This document shows, in pieces, positions 3,240-24,298 of a DNA stretch of 53,786 nucleotides (within the stretch, counting starts at the first letter, position 1; every line of letters starts with the position of its first letter). Location of the stretch: positions 1 through 53,786 of the IMG/VR virus record IMGVR_UViG_3300031939_000004. One strand, written 5' to 3'. A program made the translations under genes and the position numbers. Below the pieces are notes generated by a model. The model searched no databases. It had not been told where the DNA came from and saw only the letters and a list, made by a program, of their open reading frames with translations. Origin of the DNA: a virus. Its lineage: Duplodnaviria; Caudoviricetes.

Positions 3240-3886
3240 GAGACCCGCCGGCTGGGGACCTCCAGGCGGGCCTCGCGCTCGGGCGCCGGCAGTGCCAGCA
3301 GCTCCTCGCGCAGCAGCAGCGGCGCCTGGGCGAGCTGGGCCGGGGTCAGGCTCAGCCGGCGCAGCGCCCGCTGCATCGCCTCGGCCATGAACTGACCCTG
3401 CTGCTCCTCGATCTGGACCAGCCGCTCAGCGATCCCGGCGTCGACCGCGGCCTTGGCGGTGCGCACCAGCCGGTCGCGCTCCTCGCCGTACAGCTTGACC
3501 CACATCTCGCGCAGCTTGTCGAGCTGCGCCTCGCCGCCCTCGCGGTCGATCGGGCCGAACCCGTAGTCGGTGGTGGTCTGCTTGCGCAGCCAGTCGACGG
3601 CGCCGGCCGACAGGCGCACCGCCCACAGGAGCGCCTGCGCCGGGTCGATGTCCATCTCCTCGGCCATGGCGATCCGGGCCTGGCGCTCGGCCACCCGGCC
3701 GGCGATCACCCGGGCGGCGTTGGCGCGCTGGCCGGGCGCCATCCCGCCATGCTGCCGGCAGTAGCCCTCGCCCAGGTGGTCGGTCTGGTAGCCAGCCTCG
3801 CGCCGGCAGGGCTCGCCGTTACTACGCTTGATCGCCGGGCAGGTGGTCTTGGGCCCGTCGGGGTCGCGTCGTTGTCCTCGTGCCAC
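3236..3886 (-). CDS. Probable terminase small subunit with C...C...C..HGG domain
   Basis: Directly upstream of terL with GTGA overlap; CPAIKRSNGEPC...YCRQHGG; leaderless GTG 6 nt after TACACT (3893-3898). Confidence 0.7.
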   Translation of the reverse strand: MARGQRRDPDGPKTTCPAIKRSNGEPCRREAGYQTDHLGEGYCRQHGGMAPGQRANAARVIAGRVAERQARIAMAEEMDIDPAQALLWAVRLSAGAVDWLRKQTTTDYGFGPIDREGGEAQLDKLREMWVKLYGEERDRLVRTAKAAVDAGIAERLVQIEEQQGQFMAEAMQRALRRLSLTPAQLAQAPLLLREELLALPAPEREARLEVPSRRVS

Positions 3887-3909
3887 CGGGGCAGTGTACC
3901 CCGGAGGTG

Positions 3910-4107
3910 TTAGCGTCCGGGACTGGCGGCCATCCGAGCCCAGCGGCAGGTGCGGCAGCGCCGGTCGATGTACGGCGGGCCGCCGGCCACCCGCGGGCGC
4001 CGCTCGAACTCCTCGCCGCCCTTGACCTGCCCACAGGTCTGGCAGGTCAGCGCGAGGATCGTCCGAGCGCCCGGGGCGAGCCGGCGGCCGAACAGCAGAC
4101 GGGGCAT
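3910..4107 (-). CDS. Small Zn-finger protein
   Basis: CQTC...CRTC; TGATG coupling to the upstream gene. Confidence 0.6.
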   Translation of the reverse strand: MPRLLFGRRLAPGARTILALTCQTCGQVKGGEEFERRPRVAGGPPYIDRRCRTCRWARMAASPGR

Positions 4108-4784
4108 CAGTCCATGCCGTGGACGGGGCACGGCGAGTCGCCGGTGCAGCCCTGGCCGTGCAGGGCGTCCCACCAGCGGGCGGCCCAGCGGGCGTCACCG
4201 AGGGCGGTGTGCCGGTCCTCGGGTCGGGCGTCGGGGACCGCGGCGAGGTGGGCGAGCGCCTCGCTGTTCATCGGCAGCCCCGGCTGTAGGCCGCGGGCGA
4301 GCGCGTGCCCGTAGGCCATGGACTTCAGGTCGTGGATGGCGTAGTGCCAAGGCTGCTCGGCCAGCCCGTGCCGGCGGAACATGGCCGACAGGACCGCCGC
4401 GTCGAAGTGGGTCCCGACCCCGACCAGGGTCGCGCCCTGCAGCTTGGTGTGCACCGCGCGGGCGATGGCGAACTCGGGCCCGTGGCCGGCGAACACGCCC
4501 TCGTCGTCGTACAGCCGGCCGCAGTATTCGCCGGACAGCCCCATCCGGCCGCGGGTCTCCCAGCCACCGATGCGCAGCGCGTCGGGCTCGGTGCCGGGCG
4601 GCAGGCTACTCGGGGTGTAGTCCACGATCCACAGGTGCTCGTGGACCACCTGGTCGGGGTCCTTGACGCCGTTGCGGACCTGGGCGGGGTGCGGGCCGCG
4701 GTAGACGGCGGCGATCTCCCAGGGACGGGCGAGGTGGCTCAGGCCGGTCGTCTCGGTGTCGACGAACACCAGGGGCGGGGTCAT
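4107..4784 (-). CDS. DnaQ/DEDDh 3'-5' exonuclease
   Basis: VFVDTETTGL, HFD and HTALGDA motifs; GAGGAG RBS. Confidence 0.85.
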   Translation of the reverse strand: MTPPLVFVDTETTGLSHLARPWEIAAVYRGPHPAQVRNGVKDPDQVVHEHLWIVDYTPSSLPPGTEPDALRIGGWETRGRMGLSGEYCGRLYDDEGVFAGHGPEFAIARAVHTKLQGATLVGVGTHFDAAVLSAMFRRHGLAEQPWHYAIHDLKSMAYGHALARGLQPGLPMNSEALAHLAAVPDARPEDRHTALGDARWAARWWDALHGQGCTGDSPCPVHGMD

Positions 4785-5215
4785 ACGGGGCTCCTCTTGC
4801 CGGTCCTGGCGTCGGCAGCCAAGATCCATGCGTGCCAGTAAAGCACGGGCATCTCCAGGGCCGAGGCGATCTGGAGTTCGAGCGTGGCGCCGCGGGACTG
4901 GCGGATTCCGCTGGGGGTGACCGTGGCGACGGCGTTGCAGGTCAGCAGCCCGCCGATGGCGCCGCGGACGGCGCTGTACCAGTCGCACTGGGGCTGCTGG
5001 GCGATCGGGGGCTCGGCCGGCGAGATCACCCGGTAGCCACGGCCACGCAAAGAGGCAGCAGCCTGGTGGAACTCGGCGAAGTTGAGCCCGGGGTAGCCCG
5101 ACATCGGGCCGCACAGATAGATCTGCCAGGCGTTCGGGCCGCGGGAACCGCCGAACACTCGGGCCCGGTCGCGCTCCATCACGCGCTCAGCGGCGCGCCG
5201 TTCGATCTGGTCCAT
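4781..5215 (-). CDS. DUF4406 / nucleoside deoxyribosyltransferase-like protein
   Basis: IYLCGPMSG..LNF..F, VISPAE and SRGATLE motifs. Confidence 0.75.
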   Translation of the reverse strand: MDQIERRAAERVMERDRARVFGGSRGPNAWQIYLCGPMSGYPGLNFAEFHQAAASLRGRGYRVISPAEPPIAQQPQCDWYSAVRGAIGGLLTCNAVATVTPSGIRQSRGATLELQIASALEMPVLYWHAWILAADARTGKRSPV

Positions 5216-5224
5216 CGTGCTACG

Positions 5225-5395
5225 CTAGCAGGGCAGCTCCAGCTGACCCGGTACCGGAACCGGGACCCGAAGCCGCTCCAGCTCGACCAGCGCCTCCACC
5301 AGCTCCGGCACGTGTTGGTACAGCGCCAGCACGACAGCACGAAGCTGCGCCGGGTTCAGCCGGCGCAGCTCGCGCTTGCACTCCTGCGGGGTCAC
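5225..5395 (-). CDS. Small hypothetical protein
   Basis: GTGA-coupled ORF filling an operon gap. Confidence 0.45.
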   Translation of the reverse strand: MTPQECKRELRRLNPAQLRAVVLALYQHVPELVEALVELERLRVPVPVPGQLELPC

Positions 5396-5730
5396 GCGAC
5401 CAGCCGGCGCCGGTTGCCCAGCCGCTCGCGGATGGCCGCGTTCCGCCTGGGCGCGTCGAACCCCCACACCCGGCCGGCGCGGATCACGTCGACGGTGCGG
5501 TACCGGTTGCCGCCGGGTGGGTGGCTCGCCTCCCGGCCGCACAGATCGTAGACCGGGCAGGAGTCGCAGACCTGCACCGCCTGGGCCCACCGAGCCAGCC
5601 GGGCCTCGCGGCCGGCCGCGTCGTGCGGGTGCTGCATCTCGCCCGGCAGGTCGACGTCCCAGGTCCGAGGCGGCAGCGTCGGGTGGTCGTGGCAGGCCGC
5701 CCGACGCTGCCAGCTGGAGTCAGTAGCCAC
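5392..5730 (-). CDS. WhiB-family transcription factor
   Basis: W..RAAC ... VCDSCPV..LC (four Cys) and a GRVWG turn. Confidence 0.78.
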   Translation of the reverse strand: MATDSSWQRRAACHDHPTLPPRTWDVDLPGEMQHPHDAAGREARLARWAQAVQVCDSCPVYDLCGREASHPPGGNRYRTVDVIRAGRVWGFDAPRRNAAIRERLGNRRRLVA

Positions 5731-6223
5731 TGGACCCGAAGCCTCGCGTGCCGCGCTCGTCGGGGGACACCAACACGTCGGTGCTCTCGGATCGGACCCG
5801 GACGATCGGGTGCAGGACCAGCTGCGCCAGCCGCTCACCCACAGCCACATCCACAGGTGTGGACGACAGGTTCCACACCCCGGCGTAGATCGGCCCGATG
5901 TACCCGTTGTCGATCACCGCCTCGTTGACCAGCAGCCCGCGGCGCCGCAGGGTCGAGCTGCGGCCGGTGATCCGGCCCCAGTAACCCGTCGGCAGCCGCA
6001 GCCGCAGCCCCGACTCGACGTCGACGAACTGGCCCGGCTCGATCCGGACCGCCTCGCTGACGAACAGGTCGAGCCCGGCGTCGCCGGTATGCACCTGCAT
6101 CGGCATCTGCGCATCGGGGTCGTCCAGGGCAACCTGTAGCACCGGCAGGTGCGGCGGGACGTCGATGGTCGTCCACGAGCCCTGGGTACGCAGCTGAACG
6201 CGTGGTTGGTCCTGCTCGCTCAT
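5720..6223 (-). CDS. dut: Trimeric dUTPase
   Basis: All five motifs: AGLDL, GRSS, VIDNGYIG, ERLAQL, RGTRGFGSSG. Confidence 0.92.
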   Translation of the reverse strand: MSEQDQPRVQLRTQGSWTTIDVPPHLPVLQVALDDPDAQMPMQVHTGDAGLDLFVSEAVRIEPGQFVDVESGLRLRLPTGYWGRITGRSSTLRRRGLLVNEAVIDNGYIGPIYAGVWNLSSTPVDVAVGERLAQLVLHPIVRVRSESTDVLVSPDERGTRGFGSSGY

Positions 6224-6465
6224 CGCCGCCCCGTCCAATCCCGGGGGTCGACCTGCGGGTTCACCCGCAGCGCGGCCCGCCGGCAGTCCTCGAAGTTGGT
6301 GTAGGGCTCGCCGCCGGTCGCGACGACCCGCGTGTTCGGTGCCAGCCGGCGCCAGATGTAGCGCTGCGCTCGGCTCAGCCCGCGCCGGTGGGCCCGGCGC
6401 TTGACCACCTGGACGATGTCGCCGTCGCTGGTCCCCCAGCTGGCGGCGATCTCCTCGCTCCTCAC
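6220..6465 (-). CDS. Hypothetical protein
   Basis: Coupled by 4-nt overlaps at both ends. Confidence 0.55.
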   Translation of the reverse strand: MRSEEIAASWGTSDGDIVQVVKRRAHRRGLSRAQRYIWRRLAPNTRVVATGGEPYTNFEDCRRAALRVNPQVDPRDWTGRR

Positions 6466-6785
6466 GCGGCGTCGCAGATCGGAGCACCGCACTGCGGCCA
6501 CTCGCCCCAGCGCTCGATCAGGTCCAGGGCCCGTTCGGCGTGCGCCAGCTTGGCCATGTCGACCACCTCTACCGGCGGCCCGGACTTCTGGCCGGCGGGG
6601 AACGCGCGCAGCCGGTAGGCGCCCGACGCGTAGCCGACTGTCATGGTCACCTGGGTCTCGGGGTGGGTCCACCAGTCGACCCCGCGCTTGCGGAAGCCGT
6701 GGCCCTCCAGCAGCCCGACGATCCGGGCGCCCAGCTCGACCGGGTCCCGGCCGTCAGACAGCTTGTTCGATCTCACTTCAGACAC
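6462..6785 (-). CDS. Hypothetical protein
   Basis: GAGAGGGA RBS; in-operon ORF. Confidence 0.6.
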   Translation of the reverse strand: MSEVRSNKLSDGRDPVELGARIVGLLEGHGFRKRGVDWWTHPETQVTMTVGYASGAYRLRAFPAGQKSGPPVEVVDMAKLAHAERALDLIERWGEWPQCGAPICDAA

Positions 6786-6823
6786 GGACGTGTCCCTCTC
6801 TCGATGGTGGGTAGATCAGTGGA

Positions 6824-7369
6824 TCAGACGCCCGGCCAGGCACCGACCTCGCGGACTCGCTGGGCCATCTTGGTGTACACGGCGATGTCGTGCCAGGTGT
6901 CGTCGGACGGGCGCCGGCCCTCCTTGATCGCGCCCATCACCCGCCCGACCTTGCCGGCGACGTAGAACGCGATCCCCAGCTCGGCCAGGGCGCCCTCGTC
7001 GGCCTTCTGCTCGACCGACCAGCCGGCGACGTCGGCGATCTGCCGGCCGAGGTCGATCAGGTCGGTGGAGCTGTACTCGACGGCCTTCGGCACGACCCCC
7101 GTGATCTCCTCGTCCACCCGGCGGTACCACCAGCGCTCTAGCTCGGCCGCCATCAGGCTGTGCTGCGCCTCCCGGGCGGCCTCCGCATCCACGAGAGCCT
7201 GGCTGCGGGCCGACAGGCCGGCCAGGGCGTCCGAGGCGCTCGGAGGGGCTCCCGTGGCAGCGACGGGCCCATGGAAGCGCGGGTGCGCCGGGCAGTGATC
7301 GGACGAGCAGGCGTGCAGCCCGTCGTGATTGTGCGCCAGGCGGGTGGTGCCGGGCGGCAGTGGGGTCAT
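6824..7369 (-). CDS. Putative all-alpha NTP pyrophosphatase-like protein (DUF1599/Nmad-like)
   Basis: K..EY ... K..R ... DDTWHDIAVY pattern; ATGA-coupled to purZ0. Confidence 0.55.
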   Translation of the reverse strand: MTPLPPGTTRLAHNHDGLHACSSDHCPAHPRFHGPVAATGAPPSASDALAGLSARSQALVDAEAAREAQHSLMAAELERWWYRRVDEEITGVVPKAVEYSSTDLIDLGRQIADVAGWSVEQKADEGALAELGIAFYVAGKVGRVMGAIKEGRRPSDDTWHDIAVYTKMAQRVREVGAWPGV

Positions 7370-8436
7370 CGGGCCTCTCCTCGCAGGACGATCTGGTCGG
7401 CAACGCGCGGGCCGGTCCCGACGACGGTGACCTCGGCCCCGGTGTCGCGCTCGACCCGCTCGACGAAGTCCCAGCCGGCCGAGGTGATCTTGTCGGCGCC
7501 GGTGGCGTCGGCGTCCACCGCGCCGGGCAGCTGGTCCAGCATCGACAGGTGGATGGTAGCGCCCGGGTTCGCCCGGATCGCCCGTTCGGCGAGTTCGCCG
7601 TCCCACAGGCCGACCCGGCGTGGCTTCTTGGTGACGGTGGTCAGCTCGACCGGCAGGCCCAGCTCCTCCCAGCTGGTCTCGTCCTTCATCGGGCCGGAGT
7701 TGCCGGCGACCCGGATCGGGTAGACCCGCATGCAGGCCAGGATGGAGATGTCCGAGACGGCCCAGGGCGAGACCCCAGCCATGGCGGCGAAGTCGACGGC
7801 CCGGCAGTCGGACGAGGTGCACTGCGGGTAGAAGCCGGCGTGCAGGCCGAGCCCATAGCCCTGGGTGCCCTCGATCACGACCACCTCGTGCGGGTTGGCG
7901 GCGGCGAACTGCAGCTCGCTGGAAGTGTCGTGGGTCGGCACCGGGAACAGGTCACGCTCGACCGCGGACAGCTTGTGCCACCACTGCCCGTAGGTCCGGG
8001 CGGAGCGCAGCAGCCGGGCCGCACGGGCAGCGCCGATGCCCTTACCGGTGGAGCCGATCGCACCGACCAGGCCGTGCTCGTGCTCGACGGCCTTGTGCTC
8101 GTCCTCCAGGACGGTGGCCTGGTCGTCGATACGCAGCTCGACCCGGACGTCGGCCGCGCGCAGCTGCTCCAGCTCGCTGCGCAGCACCGGCGGGTCGATC
8201 TCGCTGCCGGCGGAGATCACGCAGGTGACGCTGGGGTGGTCGGCGACGGCTCCGACCGGGACGGTACGTAGCGGCCAGGCTCGGCCGGTCTTGTCGTAGG
8301 CGGTGTGGCCGGCGTTGGGGCCGGCGACTCGGACGTTCCAGACGTGGCGGTCTTGGGTCCGCTCGATGACGCCCGCGGTTGCGGCGCCCTTCGCTTCGGA
8401 TCCGTACTGACCACCGACGACGATCACTAGGCTCAT
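7366..8436 (-). CDS. purZ: PurZ0-type N6-succino-2-amino-dAMP synthetase (PurA homolog)
   Basis: GGQYGSEAKG (Ser in place of the PurA catalytic Asp13), RVAGPNAGH, IEGTQG, YPQCTS, TTVTKKPRRVG; SMLD keeps the GTP-specifying Asp. Confidence 0.88.
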   Translation of the reverse strand: MSLVIVVGGQYGSEAKGAATAGVIERTQDRHVWNVRVAGPNAGHTAYDKTGRAWPLRTVPVGAVADHPSVTCVISAGSEIDPPVLRSELEQLRAADVRVELRIDDQATVLEDEHKAVEHEHGLVGAIGSTGKGIGAARAARLLRSARTYGQWWHKLSAVERDLFPVPTHDTSSELQFAAANPHEVVVIEGTQGYGLGLHAGFYPQCTSSDCRAVDFAAMAGVSPWAVSDISILACMRVYPIRVAGNSGPMKDETSWEELGLPVELTTVTKKPRRVGLWDGELAERAIRANPGATIHLSMLDQLPGAVDADATGADKITSAGWDFVERVERDTGAEVTVVGTGPRVADQIVLRGEAR

Positions 8437-8443
8437 GCCTGCT

Positions 8444-8453
8444 AGCCAAGCAC
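8444..8453 (-). promoter_or_regulatory. Leaderless extended -10 element of purZ0 (GTGC-TTGGCT)
   Basis: TTGGCT lies 7 nt before the ATG at 8436; no clear -35. Confidence 0.6.
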
Positions 8454-8478
8454 GCGCGCCCCGGGCTCCGGACACGGA

Positions 8479-8515
8479 CCGGCCCCCGACCTCGGGGGCG
8501 AGAGTCGGGGGCCGG
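8479..8515 (-). terminator. GC-rich hairpin
   Basis: 12-bp inverted repeat ccggcccccgac/gtcgggggccgg. Confidence 0.55.
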
Positions 8516-8527
8516 GGCCGGCGGGGG

Positions 8528-8818
8528 TCAGCCCCAGTTGAGCCCGTGGCCGACGCGGGCCTCGACCTCGCGGCGCCGGTCCTCGGTGAAGGTGCGCCGC
8601 TCGATCATGGCGTTGGTCGCCTCGGCCCGGGTGCGGTAGTGGGAGGTCCAGCCGTCCATCCCGATCCCGAGGGCGATCCAGTCGCCATCGGCGCCGTAGA
8701 CCCGCCCGATGGTGCGGACGGCACCGTCGAGGTGCACCTCCACATTGTAGTCGCGGACCAGGCCATTGCCGACCTGGGTCTCGGCGGTCTGGACGAAGCG
8801 GAGGGGGTTGCGGCTCAT
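8528..8818 (-). CDS. Hypothetical protein (single-gene cassette)
   Basis: GGAGCCACCC before the ATG; has its own promoter and hairpin. Confidence 0.72.
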   Translation of the reverse strand: MSRNPLRFVQTAETQVGNGLVRDYNVEVHLDGAVRTIGRVYGADGDWIALGIGMDGWTSHYRTRAEATNAMIERRTFTEDRRREVEARVGHGLNWG

Positions 8819-8862
8819 GGGGTGGCTCCCTTGATTGGCGCCCCGGCGGGGCGTGTACTCAA

Positions 8863-8892
8863 AGTAAACCACAGCTCGTGCTACCCGCGCAA
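8863..8892 (-). promoter_or_regulatory. Conserved phage promoter, copy 4
   Basis: TTGCGC-gggtaGCACGagctGTGG-TTTACT. Confidence 0.78.
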
Positions 8893-8899
8893 GCACTGC

Positions 8900-9271
8900 C
8901 TACTCGCCGGTCACCAGCGGGATCTCCCCGGTCGCCGGCGCCGGCCGGACGACCTGCTCCGGCGGGACCGTGCCGGCACGCCCGGTCGGGGTCGCCTGCC
9001 GCTCCAGCCAGATGCGGTAGGCCACCCGGTCCACGAACGAGTGGATCCCGCCCCGGCCCAGCCGGTGCGGCTCGATCCCGGCCACCACGCTGTCCCGCAG
9101 GTCGGCCAGGAACTCCCGGTGGTTCGGGGCGTAGCGGTGCGCGATCCGGTCGATCTCGCTGCGCAGCGACACCATGAACGTCGAGGCGATCTCCCGCTGC
9201 ACGTCCAGCGGCACCTCGACCCGCAGGTAGGTGTTCGGCCCGATCGCCTCCTCGAAGCTCACAGCCCCCAT
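8900..9271 (-). CDS. Hypothetical protein
   Basis: In-operon ORF with normal composition. Confidence 0.6.
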   Translation of the reverse strand: MGAVSFEEAIGPNTYLRVEVPLDVQREIASTFMVSLRSEIDRIAHRYAPNHREFLADLRDSVVAGIEPHRLGRGGIHSFVDRVAYRIWLERQATPTGRAGTVPPEQVVRPAPATGEIPLVTGE

Positions 9272-9828
9272 CCCAGCACCTCCCGGCCGGCGAAATAGAC
9301 GGCGTGCAGCTGGGCGTCCCGGGCGTGGTCGGCGCTGGCCGGGATCAGGTCGATCCCGCGCGCCCGCGCCTGGTTCCGGATGCCCTTCTTGATGTCGGCG
9401 CCCTGGAGCACGAACGGCACCTCGGGCTGGCCGGCGTCGCGCCGGCCACGGTTGGCCAGCCGGGTCACGTAGCGCAGCACCCCGATCAGCTGGGCGGTCT
9501 GCATCTGCGACCCGACCTGGGCGCCGGCCTTGTCGCCGTACAGGCTGAAGCGCTCGACGGCCACCGCCCCGACCCAGCCCTCCAGCAGCCAGCTGGCGAG
9601 GTGGTCGGCGCAGTCGTCCGGGCCGTACTCCTCGGCCCGGGTCAGCTTGACCTGGCCCTCGTGGGTGGCGTCGTCGTAGGTCACCCGGGCGACGGCGACC
9701 CCGCAGTGGACGTCGCCGGGGTCGATCCCGACGACCATGGTCAGGGCCGGCGGTTCGGGGAACGACCGGTCACCCCAGGCCGAGGTACCCGAGGAGGGGC
9801 TCGGTCGGGTTGCTGCTCTCTTGGGCAT
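9259..9828 (-). CDS. RuvC-like Holliday junction resolvase (start may be near 9738)
   Basis: VVGIDPG, VAVERF and HARDA motifs. Confidence 0.8.
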   Translation of the reverse strand: MPKRAATRPSPSSGTSAWGDRSFPEPPALTMVVGIDPGDVHCGVAVARVTYDDATHEGQVKLTRAEEYGPDDCADHLASWLLEGWVGAVAVERFSLYGDKAGAQVGSQMQTAQLIGVLRYVTRLANRGRRDAGQPEVPFVLQGADIKKGIRNQARARGIDLIPASADHARDAQLHAVYFAGREVLGWGL

Positions 9829-10336
9829 CAGTGTCGCCTGCCGCCTTCGAGGAGCCAGCCGGCGAGGAGTCGCTCGACCCAGCGGGGGCGCTGGTCGAGT
9901 CGGAGCTGGTCGACGCTGACCCCGTCTGGTCGGTGGCGGTGCCGGCCGCGCTCGTGGTCGGGCCGGTCAGCGGCGCCAGCGATAGCGACGGCGACGGCGG
10001 GGAGCTGGTCGGTCGGGGCGGCAGCGGACAGGCGGACCGCGCGGTCGAGGCGACGTAGCGGGTTGGGGCGGATGGGCGCGAGTTGGGCGAACTGGACGAG
10101 CCCTGCGATCGGTGGGCCAGAAAGGTGCTGGGCCATATCTCCTCCGTGGTCACGGGGGCGGGGTCGGCGTCGAGCGTCGACCCGCCGGCTGAACCCGCCG
10201 GGGCTGGGTCAGGGCCGGGGCGGGCGATCAGGGCGGCGCAGGCCGCTACGGCGGCGAGCGCCAGGCAGGCACAGGCGCCTCGGCCGGCCGCGGTGCGTGA
10301 TCGCGGCTGGTGGTACGGCGAGCGGTGTCTGCCCAT
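9770..10336 (-). CDS. Membrane-anchored or secreted Ser/Thr/Pro-rich protein, leaderless
   Basis: Hydrophobic N-terminal segment; GTGC-TTGACT (10344-10349) 7 nt before the ATG. Confidence 0.6.
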   Translation of the reverse strand: MGRHRSPYHQPRSRTAAGRGACACLALAAVAACAALIARPGPDPAPAGSAGGSTLDADPAPVTTEEIWPSTFLAHRSQGSSSSPNSRPSAPTRYVASTARSACPLPPRPTSSPPSPSLSLAPLTGPTTSAAGTATDQTGSASTSSDSTSAPAGSSDSSPAGSSKAAGDTDAQESSNPTEPLLGYLGLG

Positions 10337-16881: not shown

Positions 16882-17162
16882 AGGTCGATCCGGCCGATCG
16901 TGGTGCGCAGGCGGTAGACCAGCGCGTCGGCGTGCTGGATCTCGGTGCGCAGTCGGTTGGCGACCACGCTGGCCGGCGCCGGCTCGGAGACGGCGGCCGA
17001 GACCGGCGGGGCGGGCTGGGGCTGCTCGGGCCGCAGCACCGGCGAGATGTGGTCCAGCAGGTACTGGATCGTGGTGTCCATCTCGTCGATCGTGGCGGCC
17101 AACCGATCCAGCTCGCCGGGGACGGCGGGCGTGATCTCGGGGTTGGGCGTGGGCTGGGTCAT
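16878..17162 (-). CDS. Hypothetical coiled-coil protein
   Basis: ATGA overlap with the polymerase stop codon. Confidence 0.6.
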   Translation of the reverse strand: MTQPTPNPEITPAVPGELDRLAATIDEMDTTIQYLLDHISPVLRPEQPQPAPPVSAAVSEPAPASVVANRLRTEIQHADALVYRLRTTIGRIDL

Positions 17163-19141
17163 TCGAGCCACCTTCCATGGTCGATCTTCATTGGACAGCC
17201 GAAGTAGGCGCTTGCCATCTCAGCACCCCGCTGCGCCAGTTGCGGGACGAGCACGTCCCCGACCTCGGTCGGGAGATACAGCACTGCGGAGTCGTGCACG
17301 GTCAGGACCAGCCCGCCGGCCGGGTGCCACTCGCGGGTCTGCAGCTCGACGTCGTTCAGCCACTCGGTCACGAACTCGGCCAGCGAGCCCTGGACGATCC
17401 GGTTCCAGCCGGATCTCGCGTAGTCCCGGGGGCCGAGGTAGGTGTAGCGGCCACTCACCAGCCGCAGCCGGCGCTGATACTCGAACTCGCGCATCCGGCC
17501 GTAGTACATGTCGCCGAACTCGGGGTAGGTGTCGCGCCATGCGTAGACGGCACGCTTGCACTCCCCCAGGGGCCACTCCAACTCGGCCTGCTTACGGAGG
17601 GTGCCCTGGAACGTCTCGGCGCCGATCCAGAAGATCGACCCGAAGGTCAGCCGCTTGGCGATGTCGCGCATCCGCTTCCACTCGACCGGCCCGACGTCGT
17701 CCTTGGTCGTCTTAAACACGCTCTCGGTGGTCACCGAGTGCAGGTCGGCGCCCTCGGCCAGCATGGTGTTCATCCGCTCGCAGCCGGCGAGGTGGGAGGC
17801 GACCCGCAGCTCGGCCTGGCTCAGGTCCAGGTTGTAGGCGGCCCAGCCGTCGATCGCGCCGGGCCCGTCGAAGAACATCAGGCGCGGGTGGTCGACGCCC
17901 TCGATCCCGCTGCCCTTGTCCATCTTCGGCACGGCCTGGAGTTGTACCCTGCCAACTGCCATCCGGCCGGACTTGACGTGCGCCTGCTTGTATTCGGTGC
18001 GCAGCCGGCCGTCCGGCCCGTTCAGCGCGGGGTAGCCCTCGTACCACATGCTCAGCGCGGTCTGCATCTTGCGATACTGGCCCCACTCGACGGCGTACGG
18101 CACGCCGGTCTTGGCCCAGAACGTGGCCTCGGTCTTGTCGACCGGCCGCTCCTCGATCCACTCGTCGCCCTTGCGGATCTTGCGCGGCTTGCAGCCCTGC
18201 CGGTCGTAGAACCAGTGCGCCGCGGTGTCGACGGTGGGTTCGACGCCCCAGGCGCGGCGGAGCTTCTCGCGCAGCGGCGCCATCTGCGCCCGGATCTTCT
18301 CGGCTTCGGCCAGCGACCGCTTGGCGTGGTAGGGCACCCCGCGCTGCTCGATCCGGTACAGGGTGCGCAGGGTCCGGTGGCGCAGGGCGAGCCCGGCCAC
18401 CTCCACCGGGGACATCTCCGCGCCGCGCAGGACGCCATCGGGTGACTCGTGACCATAGACCCGGCTGCGCTGGTGCAGCCACAGTCGGAGCGTTTGGTCG
18501 GCGTCGCGTCGGGCGTACGGCTCCATGGTCCCCCAGGGGACGAGGTCGTAGCGCTTCCGGCCGTCCAGGACCTTCTTCAGCGCGTTCTGCTCGGCGCGCT
18601 CGTCCTCGCCCCACAGCCGCTGGGCGGTGGCTTTCAGCGCGACCAGCTTGGTCGGGTCCAGCTCCTTGGCGACCAACATGGTGTCCCAGGCCAGCGCGGG
18701 CTCCAGGTCGATCCCGCCTCCGCCGGTGCCGTCGCCGAACGAGCGGACCCCGGCGCGCAGCATGGTCAGGTCGAATTTCGCGTTGTGCATGACCAGCCGG
18801 CGCCGGCTCAGCCAGCCGGTCAGCTCGTCCCATGCCTGCCGGTCCAGGTTGGGGTCCTCGAACAGGTCGCCGAGGGCGAACAGCGAGGTCTGCTCCTGGC
18901 CGGCTGCCTTGCGGTCCATCTTGGCGGGGCGCTCGCCCTTGTCCTCCCAGCGCTCCTGGTCGAACGGGAAGGCGCGGGTAATCTGCCGGCCTCGGCCGCC
19001 GTGCTCGCCCTGCTCGTAGTAGCTGATCGAGACGACCGCGACTCGGGCACCGTCGTCGGGGTGCAGCCCGCTGGTCTCGGTGTCGCAGGCGACCAGGCCC
19101 CACACCTGCTCGGGCAGGCCGAGGATCGGGGTCTTGTCCAT
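17159..19141 (-). CDS. Family A DNA polymerase with 3'-5' exonuclease (DpoZ candidate)
   Basis: Exo motifs DTETSG, HNAKFD, YARRD; motif A DLSQAELR, motif B RDIAKRLTFGSIFW, motif C VHDS; leaderless (TAGGAT at 19149-19154). Confidence 0.92.
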   Translation of the reverse strand: MDKTPILGLPEQVWGLVACDTETSGLHPDDGARVAVVSISYYEQGEHGGRGRQITRAFPFDQERWEDKGERPAKMDRKAAGQEQTSLFALGDLFEDPNLDRQAWDELTGWLSRRRLVMHNAKFDLTMLRAGVRSFGDGTGGGGIDLEPALAWDTMLVAKELDPTKLVALKATAQRLWGEDERAEQNALKKVLDGRKRYDLVPWGTMEPYARRDADQTLRLWLHQRSRVYGHESPDGVLRGAEMSPVEVAGLALRHRTLRTLYRIEQRGVPYHAKRSLAEAEKIRAQMAPLREKLRRAWGVEPTVDTAAHWFYDRQGCKPRKIRKGDEWIEERPVDKTEATFWAKTGVPYAVEWGQYRKMQTALSMWYEGYPALNGPDGRLRTEYKQAHVKSGRMAVGRVQLQAVPKMDKGSGIEGVDHPRLMFFDGPGAIDGWAAYNLDLSQAELRVASHLAGCERMNTMLAEGADLHSVTTESVFKTTKDDVGPVEWKRMRDIAKRLTFGSIFWIGAETFQGTLRKQAELEWPLGECKRAVYAWRDTYPEFGDMYYGRMREFEYQRRLRLVSGRYTYLGPRDYARSGWNRIVQGSLAEFVTEWLNDVELQTREWHPAGGLVLTVHDSAVLYLPTEVGDVLVPQLAQRGAEMASAYFGCPMKIDHGRWLE

Positions 19142-19191
19142 GCCGCCCATCCTACCGGCGCCCCTTGCCGTCGAGGCACGTCGAGGCGCCG

Positions 19192-19524
19192 GGGGTCAGG
19201 GGGTCAGTCCTCCGACAGTGTCCCTCGTGATGCATGTGCACGCGTCGCGCGCGTACGTCGCGTACCCGCGTACGTGTAAAGAACCCCAATCTCATATACT
19301 GACCCCCTGTCCCCGGTGCTCTTCTCACGCGGAACGACCGGCGTGTCGTGGGGGTCACTGGCCACTGACCCCCGCACTGACCCCCCACTGACCCCTAGCC
19401 CCTCTGTTGCGAACCGGGCAAGGGCATCTGGCCACTGACCCCACTGACCCCCTGACCCCCTGGGCCGCCGGGGTCAGTGGGGGTCAATGGGGGGTCAGTG
19501 GGTGCCTGACCCCCGCTGACCCCC
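19192..19524. repeat. Cluster of about 15 TGACCCC repeats in both orientations; putative replication origin
   Basis: Copies counted by eye; they flank a locally AT-rich patch (about 19275-19300) between polymerase and primase. Confidence 0.7.
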
Positions 19525-22256
19525 TGCAGCAGCCTGGCCGAGACCTCCACCGACAGCGGCCGGTAGGTGCGCTTGTTCGCCTTGTCCCCCGAGACGGGCC
19601 GGCGCACCCCGGGCTCGTCGGACAGCGTGTCCAGCTGGGCCCGCAGCGCCTCCGCGGTCTCGTTCCGGCCGGCGGCGCCCGGGGTCTTTAGCCGCAGGTG
19701 CTCCAGCCAGGCCGCGGTCAGCTCGGCGTTGACCCACAGGCGCTCGCCGCGCAGCAGGAACGGCGTGATCGGCGCCGGGAACCGCGAGTCCGAGCGGGTC
19801 GGCTCGGCGGGTGGCTCGATCCGGTCCAGCAGCCGCGGGAGGACCGACAGCGTGAGTGCGTTCTCGTCGCCGTAATCGGCCTGCTCATCGACCCACCTCG
19901 CCACGACATCCACGTGGTGCGGGTCGCCGGTGAGCTTGGCCAGCAGCCTCGCGCCGGCCTGCAACACCGCCATGGCGTCGCCCATCCGACCACCCCCGCT
20001 GCCGCGCAGCTGGCGGATCTCCTCGGTCAGCGCGTCGGCGTGCCGCAGCGCCATCCGGACGACCGTGCCGGCCAGCACGGTCAGGTCCCGGTCGTACCGG
20101 GCGGACAGCTCCACGATGTCGGCCCACTGCAGCCGGTCGGCCGGCGCGCCCTTACGCTGGCTGCGCCGCTTGGTCGGGCTGGCCACCTTCAGCCGGATCG
20201 ACCGGTCGATCAGCGCCTTCTCCCGGGTCAGCCCCAGGTTCTCCCCGGAGATCACGAACGGCGCGACCAGCCGGGTGGTCACGTTCTGGGTGCGGTCCTC
20301 GGCTTTCTTGGTCATCGAGCCCTCGGAGGTCGCCGCGCGCATCACCTCCTCCAGGTGCCCGATGGTGTCGGCGTCGTCCAGCCAGACGATCCCGTTCCGG
20401 TTGGCGCTCAGCGCGTCGCGGAACGCCGGCTTGGTGTTCACCGACTGGCCGCCCTTGTTGCCGGCGAGCTGGATCAGCAGCCCGAACATGCCGGTGGTCT
20501 TGCCGGACTCGGACGGCGCCTCGATCGCCATGAACGGGAACGCCCCGGTCGCCTGCATCACCGCGTGCTTCACCAGCGCGGCGGCCCACCAGGCGCCGAA
20601 CACCGAGGCGGTCTGCTCGTGGTGGAAGGTCAGCAGCTCGCGCAGCACCGCCCTGGCCTCGGCCTCGTCCCGGTCCACCCCGTATCGGAACTGGACCAGC
20701 TCGGCCGCAGCCGGCGAGGGCCGGACCCCCGGGCCGGTGTACTTACCGTCGACGGTGATCACGCCATCGGGGGTGACGAACCCGCCGATCCGGTGCTTGC
20801 CGGTGGGCTGCCCGTCTTGGCCGATCTCGGGCACCCGGATGTCGGCGTGCCAGCCGAGGTGCGGGACCACCTGGAAGGCCGGCGGGCGCTGGTTGTCCAG
20901 GTAGCGCTGCACCCGGGCGCCGCGGTCCATCCGGTCCACCGCCGGCTTGCCCTCCTCGATGGTGGCGCCCTGCGACGCCAGCCAGGCGTTCAGCTTCCGG
21001 GTGTCGGCGAGGGTCCTCGCGTCGACCTGCAGCTGCCGCGGTGGGAGCTTGTCCTCCACCCCGCGCTTCAGGTACATGCGCACGTCGTAGGTCCTCGCGT
21101 CGTCCTCCTGGAGCACCCCGACCGCCTCCAGGTCGAAGTCGGCCCACTCGAACCAGGCCGGCTGACGGGTGTCGCCCGACCCCACCCAGCCGCGGTACAG
21201 CAGCGTCCCCAGCCGCACCCCGCCCGGACCGCGGCCGGGGGCCAGGTAGCCGGCCCGCCCGTCGATCGTGGCCAGTTCCATCTCGTCCTGCGCCGGCTCG
21301 TCCAGCGCGGTGCGCTCCTGCGCCTCGGCCTGCTTGCGCCGCTCGGCCTTCCAGATGGAGCCGGCGACCTTGTCCACCTCGGCCGCCGGCAACGGCGGGG
21401 TGAGCTTCGCCGCCTGCTCGCGCACCTGCACCAGGTAGGTGTCCCGGTGGTTCTCCCGGGCCGCCAGCTGGCCCGCCACCCGGGCCAGCCAGTCGTTCCG
21501 GCCGCCCTCGCCGTCTGGTGGGTTCTGCATCAGCTCGGCCAGGGTCGATCGGCCGGTCGGGCGCTCGCCCTTCTCACTGGTCGCCCCGACCGACTTCAGG
21601 TCGGACAGCAGCCAGGCCGGGGGCTCGGCCAGCTGCTCGGTCGGCTCGATGATCCACTCGCGGCCGGGCAGCCCGCCGGCCACCACGAACCCGCCGTCGC
21701 CGCGCAGGTCCACCCCGGAGTCCTTGCCGTATAGCGCCGATCGGTTGCCGATCCGGTAGTTCGGGTCGGCGTCGGCGCCGGTCCCCTCCGCGGGGTACGC
21801 GTAGTAGTTGTGCAGCCCACCCGAGCTGGTCCGCGCCACCGCCGGCTCGCCCCACCCGCCCTCGTGTTCCCACTGGGCCGCCTTCGCCCGCTGGGTGTCC
21901 CCGCCCCGGGCGTTCGGGTGCGCCTCGCTGGCGACGTCGAAATCGACCACCAGCAGCCCGGAGGGCCGGCCGGTCGGGATCCCCGGCACCGCCAGCGGGA
22001 ACTGCCCACCCCGGCCGAACCAGCCGCGGATCACGTCCGGGTCCCGGGTGGCGACCGTCTGCCAGCCCTTCACCGCCGGCACCTTCGTGGCCGAGTTCAC
22101 CGGGAACACCGGCCAGCCGAACGAGGCGCAGGTCAGCGCCACCGCCAGCGCGTGGTCCGTGACCCCCGCGATCCCGGTCTGCTGCTCGGTCGGCGCGCCC
22201 TGCTCCGGGCGCTCGCGGGCGGGCTCGGGTGCCCCTCCGCGGTTGATCTTCGGCAT
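19395..22256 (-). CDS. Bifunctional primase-polymerase fused to PriCT and a P-loop domain
   Basis: GWPVFP, LLVVDFD, TSSGGLHNYY, GVDLRGDGGFVV, GGRND and APSESGKTT motifs. Confidence 0.88.
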   Translation of the reverse strand: MPKINRGGAPEPARERPEQGAPTEQQTGIAGVTDHALAVALTCASFGWPVFPVNSATKVPAVKGWQTVATRDPDVIRGWFGRGGQFPLAVPGIPTGRPSGLLVVDFDVASEAHPNARGGDTQRAKAAQWEHEGGWGEPAVARTSSGGLHNYYAYPAEGTGADADPNYRIGNRSALYGKDSGVDLRGDGGFVVAGGLPGREWIIEPTEQLAEPPAWLLSDLKSVGATSEKGERPTGRSTLAELMQNPPDGEGGRNDWLARVAGQLAARENHRDTYLVQVREQAAKLTPPLPAAEVDKVAGSIWKAERRKQAEAQERTALDEPAQDEMELATIDGRAGYLAPGRGPGGVRLGTLLYRGWVGSGDTRQPAWFEWADFDLEAVGVLQEDDARTYDVRMYLKRGVEDKLPPRQLQVDARTLADTRKLNAWLASQGATIEEGKPAVDRMDRGARVQRYLDNQRPPAFQVVPHLGWHADIRVPEIGQDGQPTGKHRIGGFVTPDGVITVDGKYTGPGVRPSPAAAELVQFRYGVDRDEAEARAVLRELLTFHHEQTASVFGAWWAAALVKHAVMQATGAFPFMAIEAPSESGKTTGMFGLLIQLAGNKGGQSVNTKPAFRDALSANRNGIVWLDDADTIGHLEEVMRAATSEGSMTKKAEDRTQNVTTRLVAPFVISGENLGLTREKALIDRSIRLKVASPTKRRSQRKGAPADRLQWADIVELSARYDRDLTVLAGTVVRMALRHADALTEEIRQLRGSGGGRMGDAMAVLQAGARLLAKLTGDPHHVDVVARWVDEQADYGDENALTLSVLPRLLDRIEPPAEPTRSDSRFPAPITPFLLRGERLWVNAELTAAWLEHLRLKTPGAAGRNETAEALRAQLDTLSDEPGVRRPVSGDKANKRTYRPLSVEVSARLLQGVSGGQAPTDPPLTPTDPGGPGGQGVSGVSGQMPLPGSQQRG

Positions 22257-22375
22257 CTGAAGCCGTCCCCCTCGTGTTAGTGTGACGACGACGCCCCGAC
22301 CGGGGCGTGCGGCGCTGTCCTGTGCCGTGCATGGTGGGTAAGACCGGCCCGCGCCTTGGCGGGGTGGGCCGACGA

Positions 22376-22414
22376 CGAGGGCCCGGGTCTGTTGGGGAAC
22401 GACCCGGGCCCTCG
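22376..22414 (-). terminator. Intergenic hairpin
   Basis: 14-bp inverted repeat cgagggcccgggtc/gacccgggccctcg. Confidence 0.55.
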
Positions 22415-22456
22415 CCCTATCTAAGACCCGGCCCTAGCGGGTCGCGGGGTTCTGGC

Positions 22457-22900
22457 TCACCAGGAGCCGTCGCCCCCGCCCTGGACCTGCATCCCGTCCT
22501 CGGGCAGCGGCATCCAGCGCTCGATCTCGTTGCCGATCTGGCCCTTGCGCTTGCCCTGCTCGATCTCGCGCTGGACCACCACGGCCTGGCAGACGTCCCC
22601 GATCATCTCGTCGGTGTCGGAGTCGTAGGTGTAGCCCATGGCGTCGAAGAACTGCCGCATCTTCCAGGCGCTCTTCTCGCCCAGGCTGATGTTCTCGAAC
22701 AGCCGGCGCTTGGCGTAGGTCTGGTCGCCCGCGGCGTCCGCGACGATCTCCCACTCGGTCGACCAGTACGGGTTGTCGTCGCCGCGCACCTCGACCTGGC
22801 GCAGCTTTACGGTGTAAATGCCCTCGGGGGCGGGCCCGAAGGCGCCGGACTCGGGAGCGTTGGCCACCTGCTGCTGGATGGCGGCGTTGAGCTTGGGCAC
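22457..22900 (-). CDS. DUF669-like putative ssDNA-binding protein
   Basis: F.PAPEGIY.V motif, acidic tail, downstream of the Sak4-like ATPase. Confidence 0.75.
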   Translation of the reverse strand: MPKLNAAIQQQVANAPESGAFGPAPEGIYTVKLRQVEVRGDDNPYWSTEWEIVADAAGDQTYAKRRLFENISLGEKSAWKMRQFFDAMGYTYDSDTDEMIGDVCQAVVVQREIEQGKRKGQIGNEIERWMPLPEDGMQVQGGGDGSW

Positions 22901-22902
22901 GG

Positions 22903-24204
22903 TCAGTTCTCCTTGGTGTCGGTGGTCTTGGCGGGTGCGGCTTTCTTCGCCGGCTGGCGCTTGCCGGTCTGCTTCGCCGGCTCGGCCGGCGCCGGGGACG
23001 CCTCCTCCTCGGCCGGCGGCTCGTAGGTCAGCTCGCCGGTCAGGTAGGCGTGCACCCGCTCGAACGTCGGGTTCTCCAGCACCGGCGGGGTCACCCCGAA
23101 CCGGTCCTTGGCGCGGGTGGTCTTGGCCGGCCGGGTGCGGGCCACGAAGTGCGGCTCGACGTCGTTCTCGCCGGCCATGTTCTGCACCCGCATGGCGATG
23201 TCCACGTAACCCAGCAGGGCGTTCTGGATCGCCGGGGTGGTGCTCGGCCCGTACATCACCCGGCCGGTGTCCTCGTCCACGTCCCGACGCTCCAGCGCGG
23301 TCATCAGGAAGTGGCAGGGCAGATCCCGGTACTTGCGCAGCAGCGGCAGCACCTGGTTCGACACGACCCCGTAGTCCGAGCGGTCGGTGAAGTCGGCCGA
23401 CTCGCGGTAGTCCTTGCGCTTACCCGAGCCCTCCGGCAGCGCGTTGTTCTTGGCCACCTCCCGTTCCACGATGTCGCGCAGCAGCTTGGTGACGATCTCG
23501 GTGACCGAGTCCCAGGCGACCGCGTACCAGGCGTCGGGGTCGTCGTGCAGCTCGGCCTGGACCTGCCAGAACAGCCGCTCCAGGTTGTCCACCGTGAGCA
23601 GCTCCGGGCGCCCCGGAGGCGGGAAGATCGAGATGTTGCCGGTGTTCACCCCGCGCCTGCGCAGCGGGGTCAGCTTCAGCCCGCCCTCGGCGTTGATGAC
23701 CAGGATCCGACCGTGGTTGGCCGCGGTGGCGATCGAGGTCGTCTTGCCGGTGCCCTCGGTGCCGTACCACAGACCGTTGAGCTTCTCCTCGGTCTCGTCC
23801 AGCGCGGCCAGCTGCAGCCCGCCAGTCGACGGCCCGGCCATCTCCCCGCGCGGCTCGGCCACCACCGGGGTCGGCCGGGCGCGCTTGGCCGGCGGTGCGG
23901 CCTTCTTCGCCGCGGGGGCCGGCTTCTCCGCTGGGGTCTCCTGTGTCACGGGAGCCCCTCCGTCGGCCTCGGAGCCCCCGGCGGGCACCGGGGCACCCTC
24001 CTCGGGCTCGACGCCCCCGTCCGGCCCGGACGGGAGTGCGGCGTCGGCCGGCCAGCCGTCGTCCACCGGGTTGGCGGCTGCGGCCCACGGGTCGCCCGTA
24101 GCGGGCGCCCCGCCCTTCATCGTCTCCTCCACCGGCGGGACCTGGGCGCGGGCGACCGTGGTGGCCGCCCCGTCCCCCGCGGTGTGGCGTGGTGCTTTGG
24201 GCAT
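22903..24204 (-). CDS. AAA_24 / Sak4-like ATPase (recombinase)
   Basis: YGTEGTGKTT, INAEGG, VAWDSVT and AKDR motifs. Confidence 0.85.
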   Translation of the reverse strand: MPKAPRHTAGDGAATTVARAQVPPVEETMKGGAPATGDPWAAAANPVDDGWPADAALPSGPDGGVEPEEGAPVPAGGSEADGGAPVTQETPAEKPAPAAKKAAPPAKRARPTPVVAEPRGEMAGPSTGGLQLAALDETEEKLNGLWYGTEGTGKTTSIATAANHGRILVINAEGGLKLTPLRRRGVNTGNISIFPPPGRPELLTVDNLERLFWQVQAELHDDPDAWYAVAWDSVTEIVTKLLRDIVEREVAKNNALPEGSGKRKDYRESADFTDRSDYGVVSNQVLPLLRKYRDLPCHFLMTALERRDVDEDTGRVMYGPSTTPAIQNALLGYVDIAMRVQNMAGENDVEPHFVARTRPAKTTRAKDRFGVTPPVLENPTFERVHAYLTGELTYEPPAEEEASPAPAEPAKQTGKRQPAKKAAPAKTTDTKEN

Positions 24205-24298
24205 GGTGTCTCTCTCCAGTGTGTCGGCACCTACCCCTGCTCGGCTGGCAGGGGCTGTCTATCAGATCACGGCCCTACGACAGGGCCAGGCCTTGCGG

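Follow-up and report, generated by a model that had tools for sequence, protein, structure and literature searches.

The stretch analysed here, referred to as the window, is the whole of the IMG/VR record IMGVR_UViG_3300031939_000004, one contig of 53,786 base pairs (bp) that is classed as a linear virus and has a CheckV completeness of 100. The open reading frame (ORF) at 7366–8436 on its minus strand, termed purZ0, encodes an enzyme of the PurZ0 clade, as indicated by a curated hidden Markov model (HMM), the closest solved relative, a clade supported at 100/100 and the marker residues. By analogy with characterised enzymes, the protein is probably an N6-succino-2-amino-2'-deoxyadenylate synthase of PurZ0 type, encoded by a siphovirus-like phage that is uncultivated and has a high GC content, and acts in a pathway that leads to Z-DNA, i.e. 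DNA in which 2-aminoadenine (Z) replaces adenine.

According to the pathway proposed here, PurZ0 would condense dGMP with L-aspartate, most likely with GTP as the phosphate donor, as is suggested by analogy with characterised PurZ and PurZ0. PurB and kinases of the host would next yield dZMP and dZTP. Hydrolysis of dATP and dGTP by a Dut-like neighbour would yield the monophosphates, whereby dATP would be removed and dGMP supplied to PurZ0. Genome copying by a family A polymerase resembling DpoZ would draw on dZTP, placing 2-aminoadenine at the positions of adenine in virion DNA. Virion DNA of this kind may be less exposed to host restriction.

PurZ0 is held to join archaeal PurA to PurZ, the ATP-using enzyme of Z-genome phages. 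The enzyme and its gene set have already been described; the window adds a divergent PurZ0 from a lineage that has no cultured relatives and is represented here by a complete genome. The gene set found here consists of PurZ0, a DutZ-like protein, a DpoZ-like polymerase, an NDT-superfamily protein of the DUF4406 type and ORFX, a protein of no known family encoded directly after purZ0; it comprises neither DmtZ nor DUF5664. This divergent PurZ0, in a genome whose structural module is unrelated, extends the known diversity of phages whose DNA is probably written with 2-aminoadenine, and it represents a new variant of the enzyme for studies of how Z-DNA is made.

The PurZ0-type synthetase

The purZ0 ORF (7366–8436, minus strand) is read as a stop-free translation of 356 amino acids (aa) and is assigned as a PurZ0-type succino-amino-deoxyadenylate synthase. 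Its start is uncertain, the candidates being GTG at 8475 (the longest ORF, 369 aa), ATG at 8436 and GTG at 8427, and the motifs described below are intact with all three. The ATG at 8436 is preceded by a weak Shine-Dalgarno-like 'gcagg' only; the public gene call of 353 aa would match the GTG three codons downstream of it. The 91-bp gap upstream of the gene contains a GC-rich perfect inverted repeat with arms of 8 nucleotides (nt) and a 2-nt spacer (8482–8499), which is not followed by a T-run and was not called by the terminator scan.

At significance levels well above chance, the protein matched Pfam PF00709 (2.2e-39) and PHROG 1211, '2-aminooxy adenylosuccinate synthetase' (1.8e-87). It passed the curated NCBIfam model for PurZ (NF038379, 'succino-amino-deoxyadenylate synthase PurZ') with 334.9 bits at a cut-off of 300, whereas all five NCBIfam PurA models failed, with 71–212 bits against cut-offs of 368–700 (the best being 212.4 versus 368). 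The closest entry in the Protein Data Bank (PDB) was 7vf6 (244.6 bits, 1.4e-71), followed by Pyrococcus PurA (160.8 bits), phiVC8 PurZ (113.5), S-2L PurZ (99.2) and E. coli PurA (82.5). The structure 7VF6 is that of PurZ0 from Gordonia phage Archimedes, according to PMC12884076. Identity did not exceed 75% to anything found and was 44–53% to the PurZ0 of cultured phages (46–49% by tblastn).

For phylogenetic placement, 65 sequences were aligned: the window protein, seven from cultured PurZ0 phages, four from PurZ phages, 18 of 120 metagenomic homologues, 17 of 76 ORFs with Ser at position 13 (Ser13) from bacterial genome contigs, 17 of 75 PurA ORFs sampled from a P-loop motif scan, and PurA of E. 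coli K-12. A maximum-likelihood tree was calculated from 377 columns with IQ-TREE under LG+C20+F+G4, and support is given as UFBoot/SH-aLRT. The window protein fell into a PurZ0 clade of 29 rows (100/100, branch length 0.78), together with all seven cultured PurZ0 phages and 21 metagenomic rows. Within it, the window protein and five metagenomic proteins of 70–74% identity form a 100/100 subclade of their own. The four PurZ phages make up a separate 100/100 clade. All 47 Ser13 rows are united in one 100/100 clade that excludes all 18 PurA rows, its nearest outgroup being four short archaeal PurA rows (51 rows jointly, 96/80). The initial annotation had called the protein a PurZ0-type synthetase and had named a phylogeny with PurA, PurZ and PurZ0 as a check. 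This phylogeny, in which the window protein groups with every sampled cultured PurZ0, agrees with that call, as do the PurZ model and the nearest solved relative.

Three motifs carry the marker residues, namely GGQYGSEAKG (residues 8–17, with Ser13), TVTKKPRRVG (267–276, with Lys271) and SMLD (298–301, with Asp301). With E. coli PurA numbered without the initiator Met, which places D13 in GTQWGDEGKG, the alignment pairs D13 with S13, G302 with K270, R303 with K271, R304 with P272, R305 with R273, K331 with M299 and D333 with D301. From this mapping over 65 rows it follows that the three equivalences put forward in the initial annotation, Ser at PurA Asp13, Lys at the Arg303-equivalent position and a retained Asp in SMLD, are correct. 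At the E. coli 13 column, Ser occupies all 29 rows of the PurZ0 clade, all four PurZ phages and, in total, all 47 PurZ/PurZ0-type rows, versus Asp in 18/18 PurA rows. The E. coli 303 column holds Lys in 28/29 rows of the PurZ0 clade, is mixed in the four PurZ phages and holds Arg in 18/18 PurA rows. At K331 the PurZ phages have Phe (4/4) and the window has Met. The catalytic-site positions K16, G17, N41, H44, S129, T130, Q192, R273 and R274 are invariant across 53 PurZ0-type sequences.

These residues can be compared with published descriptions. Ser at the D13 position was found in 100% of 147 phage sequences, as given in the main text of PMC12884076. As described in PMC8342488, E. coli R303 balances O2' of IMP, and the PurZ equivalents, K267 of phiVC8 and R244 of S-2L, are too distant to hold a ribonucleotide. 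In our alignment, phiVC8 K267 is in the same column as window K271, and phiVC8 N297 in the same column as window D301; the window enzyme would therefore have a deoxy-type PurZ pocket together with the guanine-reading Asp of PurA type.

As a separate observation, Ser13 PurZ-type genes turned out to be frequent among prokaryote assemblies: of 600 stretches picked by pattern on bacterial and metagenome-assembled genome contigs, 542 encode a relative. Among the 17 sampled prokaryote-contig rows, 14 lie outside both the PurZ0 clade and the clade of sampled PurZ phages; 12 of these 14 have Asp at the D333 column and ten have His at K331. Judged by their sequences, these outlying genes may represent further PurZ lineages, possibly in prophages.

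A PurZ0-linked gene directly downstream

Directly after purZ0 lies ORFX (6824–7369, minus strand, 181 aa), which encodes a PurZ0-linked helical protein. Its ATG overlaps the stop codon of purZ0 (ATGA) and GGAGAGG is located 5–11 nt upstream of this ATG, an arrangement that suggests translational coupling of ORFX to purZ0. No Pfam, PHROG or NCBIfam family matched the protein. Gp66 of phage Galactica, the product of the gene after Galactica purZ0, is 44% identical to it over 146 residues. By tblastn, ORFX was found in 31 phage records (Microbacterium 18, Gordonia 6, Streptomyces 5, Micrococcus 1, Curtobacterium 1). For Microbacterium, Gordonia and Streptomyces these counts equal those of PurZ0 records, and the Micrococcus and Curtobacterium phages also have PurZ0 records. 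Among the matches listed, ORFX stands just after purZ0 in all nine records with both sets of coordinates. In the Arthrobacter phage Wayne, the slot after purZ0 is filled by a DUF5664 protein (PF18909, 3.5e-32).

The linkage was assessed in both directions. A forward test comprised 80 PurZ0 loci from IMG/VR, some of which are cultured phages again, and the window, and used an ORFX HMM and jackhmmer; 80 of the 81 sources were assessable, one having 52 bp downstream only. Directly downstream of purZ0 and on the same strand, ORFX was found in 65 of the 80 loci and DUF5664 in the other 15, with no locus having both and none having neither. For the reverse test, 71 IMG/VR loci were picked by ORFX patterns, two of which had less than 360 bp upstream. 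In all 69 assessable loci purZ0 was present within 3 kb of ORFX, and in 66 it was directly upstream. The two sets overlap and together contain 88 distinct ORFX C-termini. In public data the family amounts to 947 clusters at 50% identity (E≤1e-3). On the basis of these co-occurrences, ORFX is read as a dedicated PurZ0 partner, strictly linked to PurZ0.

The family has its conserved core in the C-terminal ~110 residues, where the elements Trp-Trp, P-K-A-x-E-Y, D-L, G-K-x-x-R and D-x-x-x-D-x-x-x-Y are invariant. An AlphaFold2 (AF2) model of ORFX is a helical bundle (mean pLDDT 82.5, pTM 0.64). Foldseek returned no match to this model in the PDB at E≤1e-3, and VIA-align, run on 48,161 chains, reached a Z of 6.2 at best; the chains it matched were all generic helical bundles, and a PRA-PH pyrophosphohydrolase came no higher than rank 48 (Z 5.4). 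None of the solved structures was a convincing match to the model. A Foldseek search of BFVD yielded seven significant matches, which are orthologues; these were followed by a weak match to an Nmad ('nucleotide modification associated domain') protein (E 0.015) and by phiCTP1 Gp74 and DUF6378 proteins (E 0.2–1.5). The Atlas structure rows for ORFX versus DUF1599 clusters showed TM values of 0.60–0.70, all 'under the bar'. When Pfam was run on 41 family members, DUF6378 was matched weakly by one (E 0.11) and DUF1599 by none. A complex prediction with PurZ0 and residues 70–181 of ORFX scored 0.00 in two runs, with a mark of 0.32, and provides no evidence either way.

Several candidate identities were rejected. 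Weak matches to phrog_474, 'phosphofructokinase', occurred in 11/41 members (best E 1.3e-4), and this label is not trusted. Homology to DUF5664 was not detected (BLASTP E 1.8, hhalign probability 0.2%), nor was a relationship with MazG when the ORFX profile was aligned with a phage MazG, Microdon gp59 (hhalign probability 0.1%). A fusion to PurZ0 was likewise discarded, as Pfam found the PurA domain in 0/29 long family members and, apart from this, two weak zinc-finger matches below their cut-offs.

The N-terminal ~55 residues of ORFX (7205–7369) are modelled with low confidence and are rich in His and Cys; several homologues are extended N-terminally and carry CxxC/HxxxH-like patterns. In the DUF5664 proteins of Arthrobacter PurZ0 phages, Cys residues near the N-terminus are nearly invariant as well. 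A small zinc module common to ORFX and these DUF5664 proteins is possible, as far as residue patterns can indicate.

Most likely, ORFX fills the slot that is held in Arthrobacter PurZ0 phages by DUF5664-1, a dATP/dGTP diphosphohydrolase. Two grounds, the same position and mutual exclusion, lead us to suggest that ORFX replaces DUF5664-1 as an enzyme of the nucleotide pool. The ORFX family is not named in the main text of PMC12884076, supplements aside, and 'Microbacterium' and 'gp51' are absent there as well; by title or abstract, none of the papers found on DUF1599, Nmad1 or DUF6378 concerns Z-DNA. We tentatively propose, at chances slightly below even, the combination of two claims. The first is that ORFX is a previously undescribed component of the PurZ0 route and a non-homologous alternative to DUF5664-1 in most PurZ0 phages, whether as a new dATP/dGTP-clearing enzyme, possibly distant kin of Nmad1/DUF6378, or as an accessory subunit of PurZ0. 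The second is that the window is the first full genome of a separate lineage of PurZ0 phages. If ORFX does belong to the pathway, the current scheme for PurZ0 (PurZ0, DutZ, DmtZ, DUF5664-1, DpoZ) would be one component short for most PurZ0 phages. The linkage of ORFX is the part that could open something new, the PurZ0 finding being solid but expected by specialists.

Neighbouring genes and genome layout

The gene at 5720–6238 (minus strand) encodes a DutZ-like protein of 172 aa with the dUTPase fold (PF00692, 1.1e-22); its start is uncertain and the longest ORF reaches 6487. Its best phage matches are Dut proteins of PurZ0 phages (42–50% identity), ordinary dUTPases reaching at most 39%, and it falls short of the NCBIfam cut-offs for canonical dut (93.9 versus 102.55). 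In a tree of 30 rows it clusters with 24 DutZ proteins from PurZ0 loci, apart from five ordinary dUTPases (81/88). The main text of PMC12884076 reports dutZ in 98/98 PurZ0 genomes and describes the dATP-clearing partner in PurZ0 phages as a Dut-like enzyme. According to the same source, the Dut proteins of phages Ghobes and Wayne have dATP/dGTP diphosphatase activity, and Ghobes Dut alone turned dATP and dGTP fully into monophosphates in vitro.

A second neighbour (4781–5215, minus strand, 144 aa) is a protein of the NDT superfamily (DUF4406; PF14359 1.7e-14, PF05014 2e-4 and below its cut-off), the nearest relatives of which are found in phages without purZ. BLASTP showed no similarity to the DmtZ-DutZ protein of Galactica. 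In hhalign, the protein aligned with the DmtZ profile over 101 columns (probability 78.5%, E 1.7e-5), and the Glu of G-x-x-x-E, which we take to be the catalytic residue of the NDT family, is aligned in both. By these comparisons the DUF4406 protein and DmtZ are distant kin within the superfamily and not orthologues; the protein is possibly an analogue. In the main text of PMC12884076, dmtZ, encoding an NDT-like dAMP hydrolase/transferase, is counted in 85/98 PurZ0 genomes and is missing from 13/98. In a bioRxiv preprint, NDT (PF05014) is described as enriched on contigs that carry the dZ modification, and one enzyme is said to prefer dA. The gene that directly follows the NDT-like one, at 4107–4784 on the minus strand, encodes a DEDD/RNase T-type exonuclease (PF16473 1.1e-6; PF00929 7.5e-6; phrog_192, 'DNA polymerase exonuclease subunit', 1.7e-20).

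The family A DNA polymerase noted in the initial annotation is indeed present, encoded at 17159–19150 (minus strand, 663 aa) with a 3'-5' exonuclease domain (PF00476, PF01612). Its highest-scoring NCBIfam model is phage_DpoZ_2 (NF038381), with 324.5 bits at a cut-off of 350, the next model reaching 94 bits. At E≤1e-20 the polymerase matched 146 phage records (Arthrobacter 105, Microbacterium 18, Streptomyces 15, Gordonia 6, Micrococcus 1, Curtobacterium 1) with scores of 169–280 bits, all others remaining at or below 91 bits. This list of genera is the PurZ0 list apart from ten extra Streptomyces records, a PurZ match being found in five Streptomyces records only. Three of the extra phages that are listed, Stuff, Henoccus and Microdon, match with E values of 8e-55 to 7e-59. 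In Microdon the replication module has the same order of genes, a MazG gene stands beside the polymerase, and purZ is absent from the 16 kb examined. Because relatives occur in phages without PurZ and the score is below the cut-off, the polymerase alone does not mark Z. By its sequence relationships it is DpoZ-like, of a type not exclusive to PurZ0 phages, and the ten PurZ-less Streptomyces phages are possibly non-Z relatives that would offer a useful contrast for the specificity of DpoZ. The main text of PMC12884076 assigns PurZ0 phages a DpoZ group of their own.

Upstream of the polymerase, a replication module on the minus strand (19395–25246) comprises a PD-(D/E)XK exonuclease (24299–25246), a Sak4-like ATPase (22903–24204), a small ORF (22457–22900) and a primase-polymerase (19395–22256), in the gene order of Arthrobacter phage Wayne. 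A MazG-like gene had also been noted initially, and this is not borne out, since none of the 77 ORFs in the window matches MazG, DUF550, DUF5664 or HD families at E≤1e-3. ORFX is the likely source of that remark.

The 77 ORFs derive from a gene call based on GC3, and nearly all are on the minus strand. GC content is 72% overall and 69–74% all along the window. Pfam and PHROGs revealed the layout of a tailed phage, with a large terminase, a capsid E-type major capsid protein, a tape measure, a tail tube protein and an amidase. For positions 1–25000, megablast gave no match at the DNA level among 50,697 phage records. The large terminase showed partial matches only, none of the 89 matching records covering at least 80% of the protein. 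By these comparisons, the window is a viral genome of 53.8 kb without a close cultured relative. No tRNA genes were found in it. A promoter and terminator scan of 3500–10000 gave no terminator and a single promoter-like site inside a gene, and was uninformative. In the protein encoded at 45352–47058 (minus strand, 568 aa), a region of the phage minor capsid protein 2 type (MuF-like; PF06152, 4e-8) is joined to an ADP-ribosyltransferase exoenzyme domain at the C-terminus (PF03496, 8.1e-13); by this domain composition, the protein looks like a virion-carried ADP-ribosyltransferase.

Substitution, phosphate donor and known systems

The genes and residues described above make a Z-genome probable for the phage of the window. 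The gene neighbourhood, the marker residues and the membership in family and clade are observed here; the substrate, the phosphate donor and the occurrence and degree of Z in the DNA are inferred. Several points weigh against this reading. The Z base is not readable from sequence, base-called reads showing it as A, and the source is an uncultivated IMG/VR virus. No cultured PurZ0 is more than about 53% identical to that of the window. For the Dut-like protein, the clade support is moderate at 81/88, the window branch is long (2.01) and the outgroup consists of five ordinary dUTPases. The polymerase stays below the DpoZ cut-off and its group includes the ten Streptomyces records without a PurZ match. 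A jackhmmer search of the whole window found no DmtZ orthologue, a DmtZ-like domain being present in 68 of the 81 sources, and six-frame scans of the window with PF03819, PF12643, PF04447 and PF18909 gave no match at E≤1. A published sentence on the phosphate donor, considered below, points in the same direction. More generally, PMC13128860 states that over 2000 viruses are predicted to have dZ-DNA by PurZ homology, with proof absent for most.

Several of these points bear on an unlikely alternative, in which PurZ0 is active and the genome is partly or conditionally substituted. With no DmtZ, DUF5664, DatZ or MazZ, the Dut-like enzyme would be the sole one to clear dATP, and the polymerase may not discriminate against dATP. 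Such an outcome would fit the missing DmtZ-like domain, the lack of any DUF5664, DUF550, MazG or HD family in the window, a polymerase that has relatives in PurZ-less phages, and the scarcity of proof just cited. It is countered by 11 other PurZ0 loci that likewise have no DmtZ-like domain, by the published count of PurZ0 genomes without dmtZ and by the full hydrolysis of both dATP and dGTP by Ghobes Dut alone. The NDT-superfamily protein of the window could, moreover, replace DmtZ.

Tong et al. 2023 reportedly assign GTP use to PurZ0. For the window enzyme GTP is the most likely donor, since it retains the Asp that reads guanine (D333 in E. coli). This column holds Asp in 29/29 rows of the PurZ0 clade and in 17/18 PurA rows, with one gap, and Asn in the four ATP-using PurZ phages (4/4). 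Asn or Gln at the D333 site of PurZ is described in PMC8342488 as not compatible with the guanine 2-amino group, with which it clashes. The residue at this site thus argues against a PurZ0-like enzyme that uses ATP or dATP as the donor, as PurZ does, an alternative that we rate as marginally less likely again than partial substitution. What favours it is one sentence in section 24 of PMC12884076, by which PurZ0 and PurZ prefer 'ATP and GTP, respectively', the opposite of the GTP reading for PurZ0. This sentence clashes with the introduction of the same paper, where ATP is given to PurZ, and with the residues observed here, and its order is probably swapped. The introduction of a bioRxiv preprint agrees with GTP for PurZ0 by implication only. 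In view of the conflicting sentence, we treat GTP use by the window PurZ0, which is argued by analogy, as likely and not settled.

An auxiliary PurA, an ordinary adenylosuccinate synthetase that raises the host's production of AMP from IMP and leaves DNA unmodified, would share the PF00709 fold and the archaeal PurA that rank second among the solved relatives, and is very improbable given the change of the catalytic Asp13 to Ser and of R303, which binds the ribose 2'-OH, to Lys, the PurA models that all remained below their cut-offs when the PurZ model was passed, and a PurZ0 clade devoid of PurA rows. The preferred reading, a PurZ0 that probably serves a Z-genome, can be set beside the systems already known.

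Archaeal PurA is a cellular enzyme that uses IMP and GTP. The short archaeal form (Pyrococcus horikoshii 2D7U/5K7X type) has the same short build as the window enzyme (about 340 aa), aligns with it over the full length (160.8 bits) and keeps the guanine motif, T-M/C-L-D; unlike the window enzyme, it also keeps Asp13 and Arg303 (4/4). The PurZ of Vibrio phage phiVC8 (6FM1), cyanophage S-2L (7ODX), Acinetobacter phages and Salmonella phage PMBT28 shares with the window enzyme the PurA fold, Ser at D13 and a dGMP-type pocket. It is 30–32% identical to the window enzyme and belongs to a separate clade, with Asn at D333 and Phe at K331 where the window has Asp and Met. In PurZ phages the enzyme is accompanied by DatZ, MazZ or DUF550, as PMC12884076 reports, and none of these was found in the window.

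According to the same paper, Arthrobacter PurZ0 phages also carry DUF5664-1. The protein of this family (PF18909) in phage Wayne shows no detectable homology to ORFX and occupies the same slot after purZ0. From cultured PurZ0 phages the window differs in having a separate DUF4406-type NDT gene instead of DmtZ, and about 13 kb between PolA and purZ0, compared with less than 6 kb in those examined. It has in common with them an enzyme of the same clade, the markers Ser13, Lys at R303 and [ST]-M/F-x-D with Asp at D333, and a neighbourhood that runs from PolA to purZ0, the small coupled gene and Dut.

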